A stretch of 64,000 nucleotides of DNA from Hormiphora californensis (Eukaryota; Animalia; Ctenophora). The stretch covers positions 2,046,001 through 2,110,000 of the forward strand of contig CM035351.1 in NCBI GenBank assembly GCA_020137815.1. The letters are read 5' to 3'. The stretch's first letter is position 1, and every line of letters starts with the position of its first letter. The notes below the pieces were generated by a model. That model was not told the origin of the DNA. It ran no database searches and saw nothing but the letters and a program-made list of their open reading frames with translations. Positions 42,001 to 48,000 of the stretch are shown here, in pieces. A program made the translations under genes and the position numbers.

Positions 42001-45000
42001 CCTTTCCAGTATTCGAGCACACAAGAAAATAGTGTATTGTGAAACATTGGAGGAGCTGAGTCAACACATCACAATTGAGCGAATAGACATACCTGATGCA
42101 GTGAAAGCGTAAGTTCAATCAGACCCCACATTTTGAAGCTGCAGTGTGAGTGGCCGTAACGCGCTGTGTCACAGAGGTAGATCATTGCGCGCGGAGAATT
42201 TATCACGCGCTGTCTTGTCGCGACTGAACGCAGGTTGAAGGTTCAATTTCAAGGGAGCAGACCAGACGCTTGTACTTGGAACCACACAAAAAAAGATGGT
42301 GATCATCATACCAAATCGGTATATCAGAAAAACACCCCATACTGAACAGATTTCAGTTGGTTTGGGAGTTCCTTTTTAATCTTTTTGTGACCAAATACCG
42401 ACATACAAATCAAGGGACTGTCTCTTCAGTAGGAAACAATAACACACTGTAATTTGAATTATCAAAGAAATTGATCGTAAACTTCAAAGACAATTTCATG
42501 GTCCGCTGAACTTTTCTCGAAACTGAATTACTTTGGTTTTTCTGTAATTTTATCGCTTCTTGTGCTTTGACACTGTCCCCTTGGTTAGACTCTCATGCCT
42601 AGACTGGAAGTGCCTCACAGCTTCAACTACCCCATTCTCATGAGCATACTACCCAAACTCGCTTCTCTGTTCTATGAAACTCTCCTGTACACTATGAAAC
42701 TATCAATTAGCGGTTGCAGTCTCGCCCGAAATGTGAGAACAGGTGGGATCATATTCTGATTACTTGCAGTATGGTAGCTGCGGTCTAGTTGGTAATAAGA
42801 ATATGAACCCGTTTGTTTGGCACTCATTCAGACGTGGCCGTTCCCGCTGAATTGCTAGATTCTCTCTCAAAAACGTGTCCAGACAATCTCTCCCTCGGTC
42901 TAAAATTCTAAAATCATAATTCTCGAAGAATCTCTCATAGTCTCTGGCGTTTCTCTCCGGTTACTGATGATGGGTGGGCCGTAACTAGATGTTTCCCCAA
43001 GGTGCTCCTGTCGTTTCCTAGGCGCTGGCTGCTCTCATGCTCCTTCACCCTTTCCCTTAGAGGCCGTGCCGTAGCTCCGATGTAGACTTGGGAGCAGTGT
43101 CTGCATGTGGCCTAGTACACCACGTTCCTGATGTTGCATGGGAGCTCGGCTTGGTGCAGTCTGCAGTTGCAAGTGGGTGGTGGGGCAACCTTCCGGACTA
43201 GGGCTGTTTTGACTTCACTCTTCACTGTTCTCCCGCTTGTATGCAATACATTTCCAAACAGCAGAATTTTCCGTACCATGCATTATCAACCTAAAAAAGA
43301 TGTTAGAGCTGCGGATCTGATTTCTCTCAGAGAGTGAAGTGTTTCAATAGACAAGGTAACACGAGATATGTTGGTACTGGAAAATAAATTAACCGTAGCT
43401 TTCAATTACACTTGGGTAATCTTCATCAGCGGAGTAAAGAGTTTCTTTAGATACTCGAGGATGATGGCAATGGCATTCTCATTGATGAACTTGGCAATAT
43501 GTGACTCAACAAGGAGTAGGAGGAGACTCGGGATCATCCTGCTGCTGAAGACGGCCACTGAGCTGCTTCATGAAACGTACAACTTGAGCACATCATTCAG
43601 ATACGTGTAGTTGAAAACAATATCTAGCATTGCCTTGCTCATTTCAACGTATTTCTTCTTTTTTACTGGAAACATTTGTTCGACCGACACGGCTCTATAC
43701 CAGCACTAGCTCTGTCTTCTCCTGGTGGATCTTCATTGTCTTGATCCAAGACCTGAATGAACAGGTTACTTTGCTCCAAAAAGAGCGTTGTTTGACCCCT
43801 CAGAAATGTTGTTAGTTCGGTGTTCTCCGTTCACCGTTCTGAGATAATAGCTCCACAGCAGTTTAGCAATACATTTCCAAACAACGGGATTTTCCGTATG
43901 TAGGCATCTTTGACCTGAATAAGATGTTGTAGAGTAGTAACTTACTTTCTTCATGTCACACAGTTCAGACAGTTTAGTTGCCTTAAAGTTCAAGAGAGGT
44001 TTGTTGAACGCCATGTTGTTAGTAGGAAACTTGGTCCAGTTCAATTCATAACTCAAAACTCCAGTTTCTGTCTGTTCTTCACTCTCACTCGGCCGGGGAA
44101 CTGTTTCCTGTTCGCCGCGACCGCCAGCACAGTCCCTATCTGCTCCTTCTTCGATGATACCGTGGCAACGCACATGGAAGTGAGGGCTACATTCCGTTCC
44201 ACTGCCTGGGAGAGAGAAAATAATGATTAGAAATAAAGGATCGAAGAGAGTCTAAATTTGAATTATCATATTGTAGTAAAACGAATGAATCAAGTAGAGT
44301 GTGTACCTGAGTGTGATAGGGGACCTCTGATAGCAGTGGTGACATGGCGTAGATATCGACATCTTTGCCCCGTACCATCGGAGGCTCTGGAACGAGGTGG
44401 ACATCTCCGTTGTGTCCCACGTAGGTCCATTGGCCGGAGAACTCGGTACTGTCCTGAAACAATAAATACATTTACTTAATGTCTGAATAGGGAAAGATGT
44501 TACATAGACTTAGAGATATAATACAGTTATTAAAACAGTAAACACATTACACACAACCCACAAATGACTTACAGTTCTCATCTCACATATTTCCATGATG
44601 TTTGTTGCTTTGAAGTTGATCATGGGTTTGAAGAACTTCTTTGATGTTATGGGATACTTCCGAATATCCTTGATAATCGTGATTGCACGTGCTCTCACAA
44701 GAGGATCTTTATGGGCTGGAGATTATTATGCATAAGTCAAGGAGCAATTGTGTGGGGAGGGTAAATTCTTTTTTCTGGAAACATTTGTTCGACCGACACG
44801 GCTCTGTACCAGCACTAGCTCTGTCTTCTCCTGGTGGATCTTCGTTGTCCTGATCCAAGACTAGATGACATGTTTTTTTGATCCAAAAAGAGATCTAAGG
44901 GCGTTGTTTGACCCCTCAGAAATGTTGTTTGTTCGGTGTTCTCCGTTCACCGTTCTGAGATAACAGCTCCAGAGCTGGGTACTGTAACGTCCATCCATCC

Positions 45001-48000
45001 ATGTAGCCGTCATGTAACTACAGAAGACGGCAGCCTCTGGAAAGTCAGTCAGGATTTCCGCCTCCAAGTATAGCCAGGCAGAGATGATCTCATCGGACGG
45101 GAGATGCGGTAGTCCATAGCGTAGTTTTAATTGAAGATCCCTATTGCCTTTCCAGCCGAGAATTTTCTTTCTTTTCAATACATTTCCAAACAGCGGGATT
45201 TTCTTTTCATGGCTAGGATTGGTTGTCATGCTTGAGCTATCGAAATCAGCAAACTGTGAAGGCGGTTCAATTATCTGAGGTCCACGGGATAGTGTTACCA
45301 TGCTCGTATCCAGGTCCAAGATAGATGTAGATTGAGCATCGGTAGACACGAGATATGTTGGTACTTGGAAAACAAATTAACCGTAGCTTTCAATTACACT
45401 TGGGTAATCTTCATCAGCAGAAAGAGTGAATGGGTTGTGTGGTGTATTCAATACATTTCCAAACAACGGGATTTTTCTTATCTAGGCGACCTAAAAAAGA
45501 AGTTAGAGCTGCTGATCTATAGTACCTGCGCTGAGTGTGACAGGGAACTTCTGAACGTAATGGTGAACGTAGATATTGTGTGAGATCCTTGCCTCTCATC
45601 ATCGGCGGCTCCTGTATCAGGTGAACCTTGCCCGTGTGTCCAATGAACGTCCATCTTCCTTTGAATTCTATCCTTTGAATTCTATCCTGTTCTAAAATAA
45701 TAGAATATTTAGTTAGTTATAACGTCGGCATCCTCCTTGGCAAGGTGCTGCCGCACCAAAAGTATCTCGTTAAGGATATGACCGGCTCCATGCTCTATCC
45801 GCCAGTTCAACTTGATGTTAGAATATACCTTTAGTTTGGCAATACATTTCCAAACAACGGGATTTTCTATGTAGACCTGAAAGAACTGCTTTCCTCCGTA
45901 TGTAAACTCCTCCGGGATATCAAATGTGGGGGTATCAGGAGTTGCTGGGTGTTTCATAGCTCCCTTCCTCACTCGTCTGACAGTCCTTTTCAGGTTCGCC
46001 TCCGCTGGAAATTTGTAGATAGTTTCGTCATCTGCTGTGTTGGTCACACTGAGGACGACATTCAGTGTTGGTTCGTTGCAAGTTAGTGCTGCTAATCTGA
46101 CGGAGGATTTCAGTCCTGCAACTTTCACACCGACGATGTCCTCTTGATGTATGTGCTCCGGTTCTCTTATCACTGCATACGGACGGTCCCCGGTGGTGGT
46201 CAGTCTGGCCGGGCACTTGAGATGGATTCGTTGGTTGCACTGCCAGTATGTCTGTGCTGCTCCAGATTTGAGTACTTTCCTCCTCTCAGTTGGTTGGCTC
46301 TTTGAGGGAACAGTAACAACCGGCCAATGATGGATCGAGCCTGATTTCTGCAATACATTTCCAAACAACGGGATTTTCCGCCAATAAGGGAGTCTGCTGC
46401 ATGGTTGCTTGAGTAGAGGGGGACTGTTATACACCGTTGATTAGGAAGGAGGTGGGTGCAGCGTAGGGGCGAGAGAGATCCTTCGCTACTTTGTTAGTTT
46501 TGTAGCGTTAGTTTTGTTTCGTTTCCGCTTGAGAAGATCAGTGAATATTTTCCCTTCTTCCAGGCTGGATTCAGTAGTATCAGGATCGTTGGAGATAAGG
46601 GCTTCCTTAGCCATGTCAGTCCATTTCTGTCTTTGGTCGCTGGCTTCCTTGTCGACGTGAGGTTTCTTGTTCGGAGTGTATTAACTGACGGTCGTGGATT
46701 GGTCCGTAGATGTAGTAATGACCCAGGAGAAGACGTTCACTTTCTCATTGAGGTGGTTGGTGTTGAGGGCGGGGCGAGAAGAAAGTCAAGATGGGGACTC
46801 AGATTCTACTGAAGGGCAAAGAGAAGATGTTCTTCGTTGATCTTGGTAACTTTTGACACGGTTCGAGGAGGCTGAAGAGAGAACAGGACGGAGAAGGTGA
46901 TGAGGTGGTGGTCAGAACCAGTGATAACGGAGGGGTTGACTTTCCAGTTGGTGTAGTTCACGTAGTTCACGGTCGTGGATTGGTCGGTAGAGGTAGTGAT
47001 GACCCGGGAGAGAGATGGTCCTTTAGTGCTTTAATGGTCGCCCCTTTTTACCAGGTCTCTTCAGTAGAATTCCATTGGATGACTTGGTATTCCGATGATG
47101 TAGGTAGTAGTCCAGAAGTTCGAGGACAGGAGGAGGACAGTTGTGAAGCTTAAGGCACTGTGTTACTTGGTCCACGTTGTCGAAGGCACCTTGGATGTCA
47201 AAGAAGATATGATATAAGTAACTGATGATTTTAGAAGGCGAGGCTGTGGTTTAAAAAGGTCCCCGTGTGTGATTTGAGAAGGGGTTGTGGTATTACACAA
47301 TGGGATCAATAACACCGGGTCTAATTTCAAACCTACCCAATTTGCTACATGAAACCAGCAACCAACCCTATTAGCATACCAATCAATTTGGTATGTGGCA
47401 TGCGACCTGATCACGGGTATATTGGATTCGGGTATACTAATTAGCTAATTACCCAAATAATTCTGCCCCTGGTTTCGAAATAGGAATACGTCAATGGATA
47501 AGGAAGAGACAAATTGCCCATGAAAAATAAAATCATTTGAAAAATTTCATTCATTCATAAAGTTAAACATGGTACTTCAAGGCAAATTTTTCCTTTTTCA
47601 TGAAATTAAAAATGTCAAGCTTGTCAACTTTTCAAGTTGTCAAATGTCAAGTCTCTTAAAACTTGAAACAAACTAAAGATTAAGCGTATCAATATTGAAT
47701 ACATGACAGGTTGCATTTTATAATTCCAACTATCAAGGCCCTTAGATTATACTGTCATGCTACCTCTTTACCCTGTTGTGTCTCAGTTTATGTCGAAGAT
47801 TGAACTCTTGCAGTTTATTTTTTATCTGGTTTGGTTTCCTCTGATCTTTATAAAGACTCTTTATAAAGAGCAGAAAAAAACTACACCAAAAGATCCCCAA
47901 AAGATTGAAGACTTTTTTTAAAGAGTCTTCACTCTTCACTCTTCAGCAAGCTTTACATTAATAAACAATTCGTGGTACTACATCGAGTTCACAGTGCTAG

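Follow-up and report, generated by a model that had tools for sequence, protein, structure and literature searches.

What is a short sequence doing when it recurs six times, always in the same orientation, between otherwise different transposon fragments within one intron of an animal gene? The locus that raises this question belongs to the ctenophore Hormiphora californensis and lies in a 64,000-nucleotide (nt) stretch of contig CM035351.1 (assembly GCA_020137815.1, positions 2,046,001 to 2,110,000), referred to here as the window and numbered from its first letter. A transposon mosaic of ~4.8 kb (about 42690-47450) lies inside a single intron of a host gene with CRAL-TRIO and RhoGAP domains, and a 28-nt motif punctuates the mosaic. 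The locus is read here, tentatively and at slightly less than an even chance, as a uni-strand source of PIWI-interacting RNAs (piRNAs) whose + strand precursor would carry a reiterated predicted slicing or ping-pong site. The features on which this reading is based are the strand arrangement of the mosaic, the unequal decay of the motif and its own flanks, and the retention of the motif in a second organism.

The repeated motif and the strand of its neighbours

The motif occurs on the + strand at 43244-43271, 43867-43894, 45176-45203, 45449-45476, 45840-45867 and 46351-46378 (copies 1 to 6), and a scan of the window confirmed both the six start positions and the single orientation given in a preliminary description of this DNA. 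That description also treated the six as copies of one motif, which is correct, although only three (copies 2, 5 and 6) are exact; copies 3 and 4 have one mismatch each, and copy 1, the most decayed, has three. The starts are 623, 1309, 273, 391 and 511 nt apart in order, an irregular spacing of 273-1309 nt that agrees with the ~270-1300 bp first reported. No match to the motif was found in any of 100 dinucleotide shuffles of the window, and a Hamming scan of the window itself to 10 mismatches yielded two extra sites, both at chance level (9 and 10 mismatches), and no inverted copy. Positions 1-17 are invariant in all six copies, the variable sites being 18, 20, 22 and 28 (P ~0.03), and there is no indel, while ungapped identity among the flanks of the six copies drops to 0.19-0.37 outside the motif. 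The motif is not a palindrome, forms no hairpin and has no stable fold (z -1.5 to +0.5 in seven folds); an Rfam search of the window gave nothing that reaches the gathering score, only three chance matches (E 0.4-3).

The host gene lies on the + strand, which is therefore the strand that it would transcribe, and the host pre-mRNA would be antisense to the identified transposon pieces. The coding strand is - in all eight labelled pieces, which represent six families (two-sided P ~0.03), and at least four further pieces carry no label; elsewhere in the window transposon frames are found on both strands. The mosaic thus has the two features of a uni-strand piRNA cluster, i.e. densely packed fragments of several transposon classes and fragments that are antisense to one strand. 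Every copy of the motif separates different pieces, as expected from the earlier statement that it sits at switches between fragments, but at least six other junctions lack it, and several intervals hold two or three pieces, a point that the preliminary description had also made.

The motif in other samples and organisms

Contigs from four studies and two organisms (A and B) were aligned to the window, with 43825-43945 as the test region for the motif. One of the samples (S1) may be the source of the window itself, and contig totals of 125-157 million letters in A and B point to a compact genome. Among the listed alignments, flanks are recognisable for four of the five other window copies, and copies with unlike flanks may be missed. 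The summed depth on the motif in one contig set (X1) is 641 against 30 per haplotype, a figure that is inflated by overlapping contigs and that compares with the 12 units made up by six copies in two haplotypes. A search for the 28-mer beyond the window had been proposed at the outset, and by contig alignment the motif appears to be low-copy, restricted to this locus or to a few more.

In organism B none of the six records of one study (X11) reaches beyond 43860-43902; over 203 nt they are gapless and differ from the window at 6 positions, although six records need not equal six genomic copies; an extended consensus around copy 2 (43860-43896) is common to that organism. Elsewhere in the region eight listed pieces from another study of organism B (X7), 1923 nt in all, differ at 144 positions and contain a further 43 gap letters. 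One of the X11 records runs into the hATm-like piece that follows copy 4 (28 of 30 letters), which lies 37 nt closer to the motif than in the window; the others run into sequence that is absent from the window. An X7 contig joins 43493 to 43860. In a second sample of organism A (X5) a contig of 345 nt (depth 597) passes from 45326 into a motif copy that has a flank like that of copy 2, and then continues into new sequence, and X1 contains a short record resembling this junction (45326 / 43866). Judged from these contigs, haplotypes of the array are distinguished by a unit that was inserted in one or deleted from the other. P0003, from a 1391-nt contig and the best of 105 matches to the FLYWCH frame of the mosaic, leads from a MULE piece (~72%) through a remnant of the flank and the motif peptide to a new neighbour. 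On these alignments the motif behaves as a constant module with cargo reshuffled around it.

Nothing from organism C (X12) aligned on the motif, and X13, perhaps an RNA run, gave no alignment to the window; neither is evidence of absence. A degenerate 27-nt pattern of the motif had no match in metagenome, viral and prokaryote collections; for an 18-nt pattern the 117 metagenome loci listed of ~160, and 4 viral loci, are all single and at chance level, the best having 4 mismatches in 28. Single-base errors in the assembly of the window are probable at 43757, 43760, 43357 and 42951; X1 and X5 agree in missing one base at each of the first two positions and in having an extra one at the third.

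Origin and growth of the copies

The flanks of the motif had been described as mostly different. This holds for the left flanks. On the right, however, copies 1, 2 and 4 share homologous sequence, with p<=0.0024 in 3 of the 15 pairwise comparisons and a weak signal for copy 5 (p=0.04), and the copies therefore derive from a duplicated unit that is longer than the motif, at least ~70 nt. A remnant of the ancestral right flank follows copy 1 at 43272-43320 and has homologous counterparts beside copies 2 and 4; 45 nt of this flank also follow copy 4, preceding the hATm-like piece at 45522-45700. Read on the - strand, the ancestral unit of copies 1, 2, 4 and 5 resembles the 3' end of an intron with 9-20 nt beyond it (19 nt in the remnant beside copy 1), which makes capture from a spliced gene the probable origin of the duplicated unit. 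The right flanks differ at 10/44, 11/43 and 18/49 positions plus gaps (23-37%), against 1-3 of 28 in the core of the same unit; the comparison of core with own flank gives Fisher p of 0.23, 0.021 and 0.017 for boundaries that were chosen post hoc.

Duplication is also seen among the other components of the mosaic. The two copies of MULE family 2 (A and B) differ by 12 mismatches in 201 aligned bases (6%), and a repeat of ~90 nt occurs twice with a divergence of 1-2%. Because of these internal duplicates and the junctions that lack the motif, local duplication followed by deletion is favoured over CRISPR-style acquisition (CRISPR, clustered regularly interspaced short palindromic repeats) as the explanation of how the copies arose. 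The preliminary description named, among its joint grounds for abandoning a function, that the motif is confined to this place and that its six copies all trace to nested duplication and deletion. The motif is indeed low-copy, and nested duplication does provide the origin of its copies, but duplication alone does not readily explain the survival of the core only, in two species. An X1 contig of 1184 nt that aligns colinearly to 43927-44032 and 45531-45674 was considered as a spliced allele of the mosaic and rejected, a native hATm-like element being the better interpretation; hence there is no evidence of RNA-mediated capture.

A predicted slicing site

In the proposed mechanism the mosaic would be transcribed on the + strand, either as part of the host pre-mRNA or from a nested promoter, and one abundant guide RNA would slice this precursor at each 28-nt motif, releasing phased antisense piRNAs from the pieces downstream. 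The predicted guide is a minus-strand RNA that starts opposite motif position 17 or 18 and would be fully complementary to positions 1-16/17 of every copy. The cut would fall at position 8 or 9, a U with an A nine bases further, and the responder from this cut would extend to position 28 and beyond and could regenerate the guide from a complementary transcript elsewhere. Two footprints overlapping by ten bases would together span ~28 nt, with the pairing region of the responder covering the less strict positions up to 28. The array would grow as a motif-bearing block is duplicated locally and then altered by deletions and new captures, selection retaining the pairing footprint only. A CpG-rich stretch at the start of the intron (42095-42262; 11 CpG in 130 nt, top 4% of windows), conserved at ~91% in organism B, is a possible promoter for a nested + strand transcript across the mosaic.

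PIWI slicing requires contiguous pairing of at least 15 nt (PMC10338343), and the motif presents a contiguous, indel-free and conserved surface of that length, with 17 invariant bases in all six copies and near-identity in organism B. In Aedes one target site is enough to set off the production of responder and trailer piRNAs (10.1101/2020.03.23.003038, 10.1101/2020.07.08.193029), and in mouse an artificial precursor with 35 sites drives piRNA production (PMC5481186). Ping-pong piRNAs are found in non-bilaterians, and the ctenophore Mnemiopsis has an unexplained class of 1U 25-mers (PMC6211395). The guide target site, one of the two options originally put forward for the motif, fits the anatomy of the locus: the host strand is antisense, the core is kept while the flanks erode, the motif is retained in organism B, and 17 bases are invariant.

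A number of observations weigh against such a site, whose function we infer only. The ping-pong register was fitted post hoc, and the core contains three U/A registers ten bases apart (4/13, 8/17 and 9/18). No source locus for the guide was found, a genome-wide search not having been made. The mean divergence of the motif copies, 5.5%, is not below that of the internal duplicates (6% and 1-2%), so that similarity alone is no proof of selection and the case depends on the comparison of core with own flank and on organism B. In this regard alignments were recorded only from ~31 aligned letters, which favours conserved copies, and the motif copies of organism B, which come from short records, may lie elsewhere than in the same intron. 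Finally, in Drosophila de novo piRNA production has been described from exonic (3' untranslated region) insertions and involves cytoplasmic export (PMC13226689), and an intronic mosaic would therefore need its own transcript or intron retention.

A bolder proposal, possible but rather unlikely, is that of a modular anti-transposon array, in which one conserved guide site would serve as the constant module, the cargo would turn over between species and even between haplotypes, and whatever piece comes to lie behind the module would be converted into phased piRNAs.

Alternative explanations

The invariance of positions 1-17 can also be accommodated by a gene-like role for the copies themselves, which is an unlikely explanation but one with several points of support. 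Each copy would encode the same + strand regulatory piRNA against one host or transposon mRNA, the copies would raise the dose, and the neighbours would not be processed; positions 1-17 would then be g2-g18 of the + strand guide. On the - strand the ancestral unit resembles an intron 3' end with exon-like sequence in copies 1, 2, 4 and 5 and in one organism B record, as would a captured piece of a spliced gene that shares the orientation of the other pieces. A 52-residue open frame that begins in copy 5 (45712-45867, -) is a candidate captured host exon; the ESM Atlas returned generic HEAT-repeat look-alikes for it at 0.96-0.97 with only 110-157 shared features, a lead only. Precedents are the 28-nt EkMom piRNA with its repeated W-linked copies (PMC12487030) and propiR1, which is produced from 7-10 loci (10.1101/2020.03.23.003038). 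However, G rather than U precedes position 1 in four of the six copies, acceptor and motif are not a fixed distance apart (19, 20, 14 and 9 nt), and no source gene was found: the motif peptides occur in none of 107 proteins except the mosaic-like P0003, and have no Pfam or PDB match. The known cases moreover are homogeneous tandem monomers rather than copies set among antisense transposon pieces. A + strand piRNA of this type would be the other half of the same ping-pong pair as the guide predicted above, and both could hold together. Neutral evolution, to which we give slightly less credence, would have a captured fragment carried along by nested local duplications, with deletions and gene conversion leaving a short functionless core. 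It is in keeping with the duplications of MULE family 2 and of the 90-nt repeat (two copies of each), with the low copy number, with the longer duplicated unit revealed by the right flanks and with a mean motif divergence equal to that of the other duplicates. It does not account for 28 nt that persist without indels amid changing neighbours, left and right, in six window copies, six organism B records and P0003; conversion would homogenise the flanks too, and gene conversion needs homology longer than 28 nt to start.

That the motif is bound by a protein is improbable, although the same conservation evidence could be cited for it and neither a strand nor a pairing partner would be necessary. 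Bound to DNA, such a protein would switch on or mark the transcription of the cluster; bound to RNA, it would direct the precursor into piRNA processing. Drosophila has cis-elements by which piRNA precursors are licensed. A stretch of 28 bases, nearly invariant and sharply bounded, is long for the site of a single protein, and the motif is neither stably folded nor palindromic. Least probable of all, and very much so, is a CRISPR-like handle at which an integrase or reverse transcriptase would insert pieces, duplicating the motif each time. The repeat/spacer appearance, the differing neighbours between species and samples, the position of the most decayed copy at one end, and left neighbours of copies 1-3 that begin within 8 nt of the motif are all suggestive of it. 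The handle re-copied at each acquisition, the second of the original options, nevertheless fares poorly: at least six junctions have no motif and several intervals carry two or three pieces, the copied unit exceeds 28 nt and is unevenly eroded, pieces are duplicated inside the mosaic, one piece retains its introns, there is no hairpin, and no Cas or integrase domain was detected by Pfam in the 54 window frames searched. Most of the same observations (spacing of 273-1309 nt, junctions without motif, lack of a hairpin or of a Cas domain in the 54 frames) sustain the first judgement that the locus is not a CRISPR.

Several more specific identities were tried and rejected. A CRISPR array proper would show even and short spacers, a repeat at every junction, and a hairpin or adjacent cas genes, which are not seen here. 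A tandem piRNA gene of the Fem/Mom type is excluded by the absence of head-to-tail monomers and by intervals that are unrelated and unequal. The terminus of a transposon or of a miniature inverted-repeat transposable element (MITE) is at odds with the low depth on the motif (641 against 30 per haplotype, inflated), where a genuine MITE of the window attains 24,000-85,000, and with the lack of an inverted copy in the window. A relic of a spliced leader was considered, with an informal comparison to the leaders of other phyla. By eye the motif has no likeness to the published ctenophore leader (PMC8527503), a piece of which has no match in the window (an uninformative result), and one transposon piece has retained its introns. 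That a functional splice or trans-splice acceptor precedes every copy is contradicted by copies 3 and 6 and by one organism B record, which have none. The motif is not the conserved "HPxxW" segment of the MULE transposases seen here, P0001 being different there, and its in-frame fusion to neighbours, seen in three of four cases, has a chance probability of ~0.33.

Relation to known systems

Uni-strand piRNA loci such as Drosophila flamenco, and antisense insertions in host transcripts, share with this locus a host unit that bears pieces of several transposon classes antisense to one strand (PMC13226689). The present mosaic differs in being only ~4.8 kb long and intronic, with pieces of 100-700 nt, and in its punctuation by a motif, which is not described in the available part of that paper; it is also known from sequence alone. 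The Aedes propiR1-lnc027353 pair and its initiator, responder and trailer reporters likewise involve a site of piRNA length that is more conserved than its surroundings between related species. There one site lies in a non-transposon long non-coding RNA; here a single site is present six times, antisense transposon cargo fills the intervals, and responder and trailer are predicted. The layout of the mouse Rosa26-pi precursor (PMC5481186), with many slicer sites along one transcript and piRNAs made from the sequence between, is alike, but as described there Rosa26-pi is man-made with 35 different sites, whereas this is a natural locus with one site repeated. Fem and EkMom/PiMom (PMC12487030) offer a multi-copy 28-nt unit that is antisense to gene-like sequence and a possible ping-pong partner, as here, yet they are homogeneous tandem monomers on the W chromosome, unlike copies whose spacers are unrelated transposon pieces.

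Two more distant systems are comparable in part. CRISPR arrays also have a constant short repeat between variable pieces derived from parasites, and in plant TAS/PHAS loci small-RNA trigger sites start phased processing, as is proposed here. Compared with both, the ctenophore locus has long and irregular intervals, no hairpin, repeat-free junctions, growth by duplication, and presumably PIWI rather than Dicer processing. Uni-strand mosaics and single trigger sites are already known; for a natural cluster punctuated by one repeated site no description was found in open-access main texts (supplements lay outside the search), where only general or single-site cases came up. Four spellings of 16 letters of the motif are likewise absent from open-access main texts, and supplementary small-RNA tables could contain it.

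Outside flies and mice it is an unsettled matter how precursors are marked for the piRNA pathway. A slicing site at the motif would make the locus a compact natural test of ~5 kb, with one predicted guide, six predicted cuts and downstream phasing; such a cluster would stay efficient while growing by re-duplicating its trigger, which suggests a screen for motifs in other antisense mosaics. A modular array, if true, would do in nature what multi-site artificial precursors do by design and would parallel repeat/spacer immunity in an animal, what counts as a precursor being encoded in sequence. Should no small RNAs turn up, the locus would be a neat case of nested duplication and would hold little interest.

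Components of the mosaic, the host gene and the rest of the window

From left to right the first half of the mosaic is composed of a Penelope-like piece, motif 1, a repeat, MULE family 2, motif 2, two successive hATm-like pieces, MULE family 2 again and motif 3; the second half of an unlabelled piece, the repeat, motif 4, a hATm-like piece, an unlabelled piece, motif 5, MULE family 1 with a FLYWCH finger, another unlabelled piece, motif 6 and pieces of a long interspersed element (LINE). The names Penelope, MULE and LINE used in the preliminary description have profile or homolog support; its hATm is a presumptive label that derives from a sequence motif and has no Pfam profile behind it. The Penelope-like piece (42691-43237, -) is a GIY-YIG endonuclease end (Pfam GIY-YIG E 0.0026, below the cut-off) and is spanned exactly by a high-depth X7 contig; it includes an imperfect hairpin at 42737-42820, a chance-level Rfam match. 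The multi-copy repeat at 43346-43570, marked by a step in depth and with approximate ends, has no Pfam match, and its first ~90 nt occur again at 45341-45427. MULE family 2 copy A (43595-43858, -) is a transposase C-terminal piece found by tblastn with residues 176-265 of P0001, itself a Pfam MULE match (E 5.5e-13), and copy B (44768-45169, -) is 60% identical to P0001 residues 109-244 (E 5e-52).

The hATm-like piece at 43927-44060 (-) is of the same family as that at 45522-45700 (-), to the right of copy 4, and has no Pfam match. The other hATm-like family (44085-44760, -, approximate ends), likewise without a Pfam match and assigned from sequence and frames, retains two GT..AG introns (~44213-44307 and ~44462-44567). 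The MULE family 1 N-terminal piece (45880-46287, -) carries the FLYWCH finger (Pfam E 1.2e-7), with identities of 71-72% to P0003 and 46% to P0004. The LINE-like pieces (46480-47450, -, approximate ends) comprise a reverse transcriptase (Pfam RVT_1 E 0.0095, below the cut-off, at 47026-47250) and what we take to be an endonuclease end.

The host gene was traced by tblastn of protein P0002 as ordered + strand exons from 38833 to 52978, with Pfam matches to CRAL_TRIO_2 (E 2.8e-4) and RhoGAP (E 2.6e-16), an architecture that we take to be ARHGAP1/p50RhoGAP-like; the exon at 50178-50365, missed by tblastn, was recognised by eye. The intron that contains the entire mosaic (42109-50177, +; 8,069 nt) has GT..AG ends and a consistent phase and is much longer than the other introns of the gene. 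Two short protein-like frames without a Pfam match at 49614-50018 (+) in the same intron are possibly a nested gene.

The window has ~43% GC, short introns and CT microsatellites, features that would fit a ctenophore. Outside the mosaic it contains a decayed hAT transposase at 33243-35295 (+; Dimer_Tnp_hAT E 5e-9) and LINE reverse transcriptase pieces at 29730-31842 (-). A high-copy MITE, presumably of the Tc1/mariner type, with CAGT..ACTG ends in a TA context and X1 depths of 24,000-85,000, is found at 48425-48529 and 53344-53509, and a 3.3-kb self-complementary foldback element made up of short subrepeats occupies 58149-61441.

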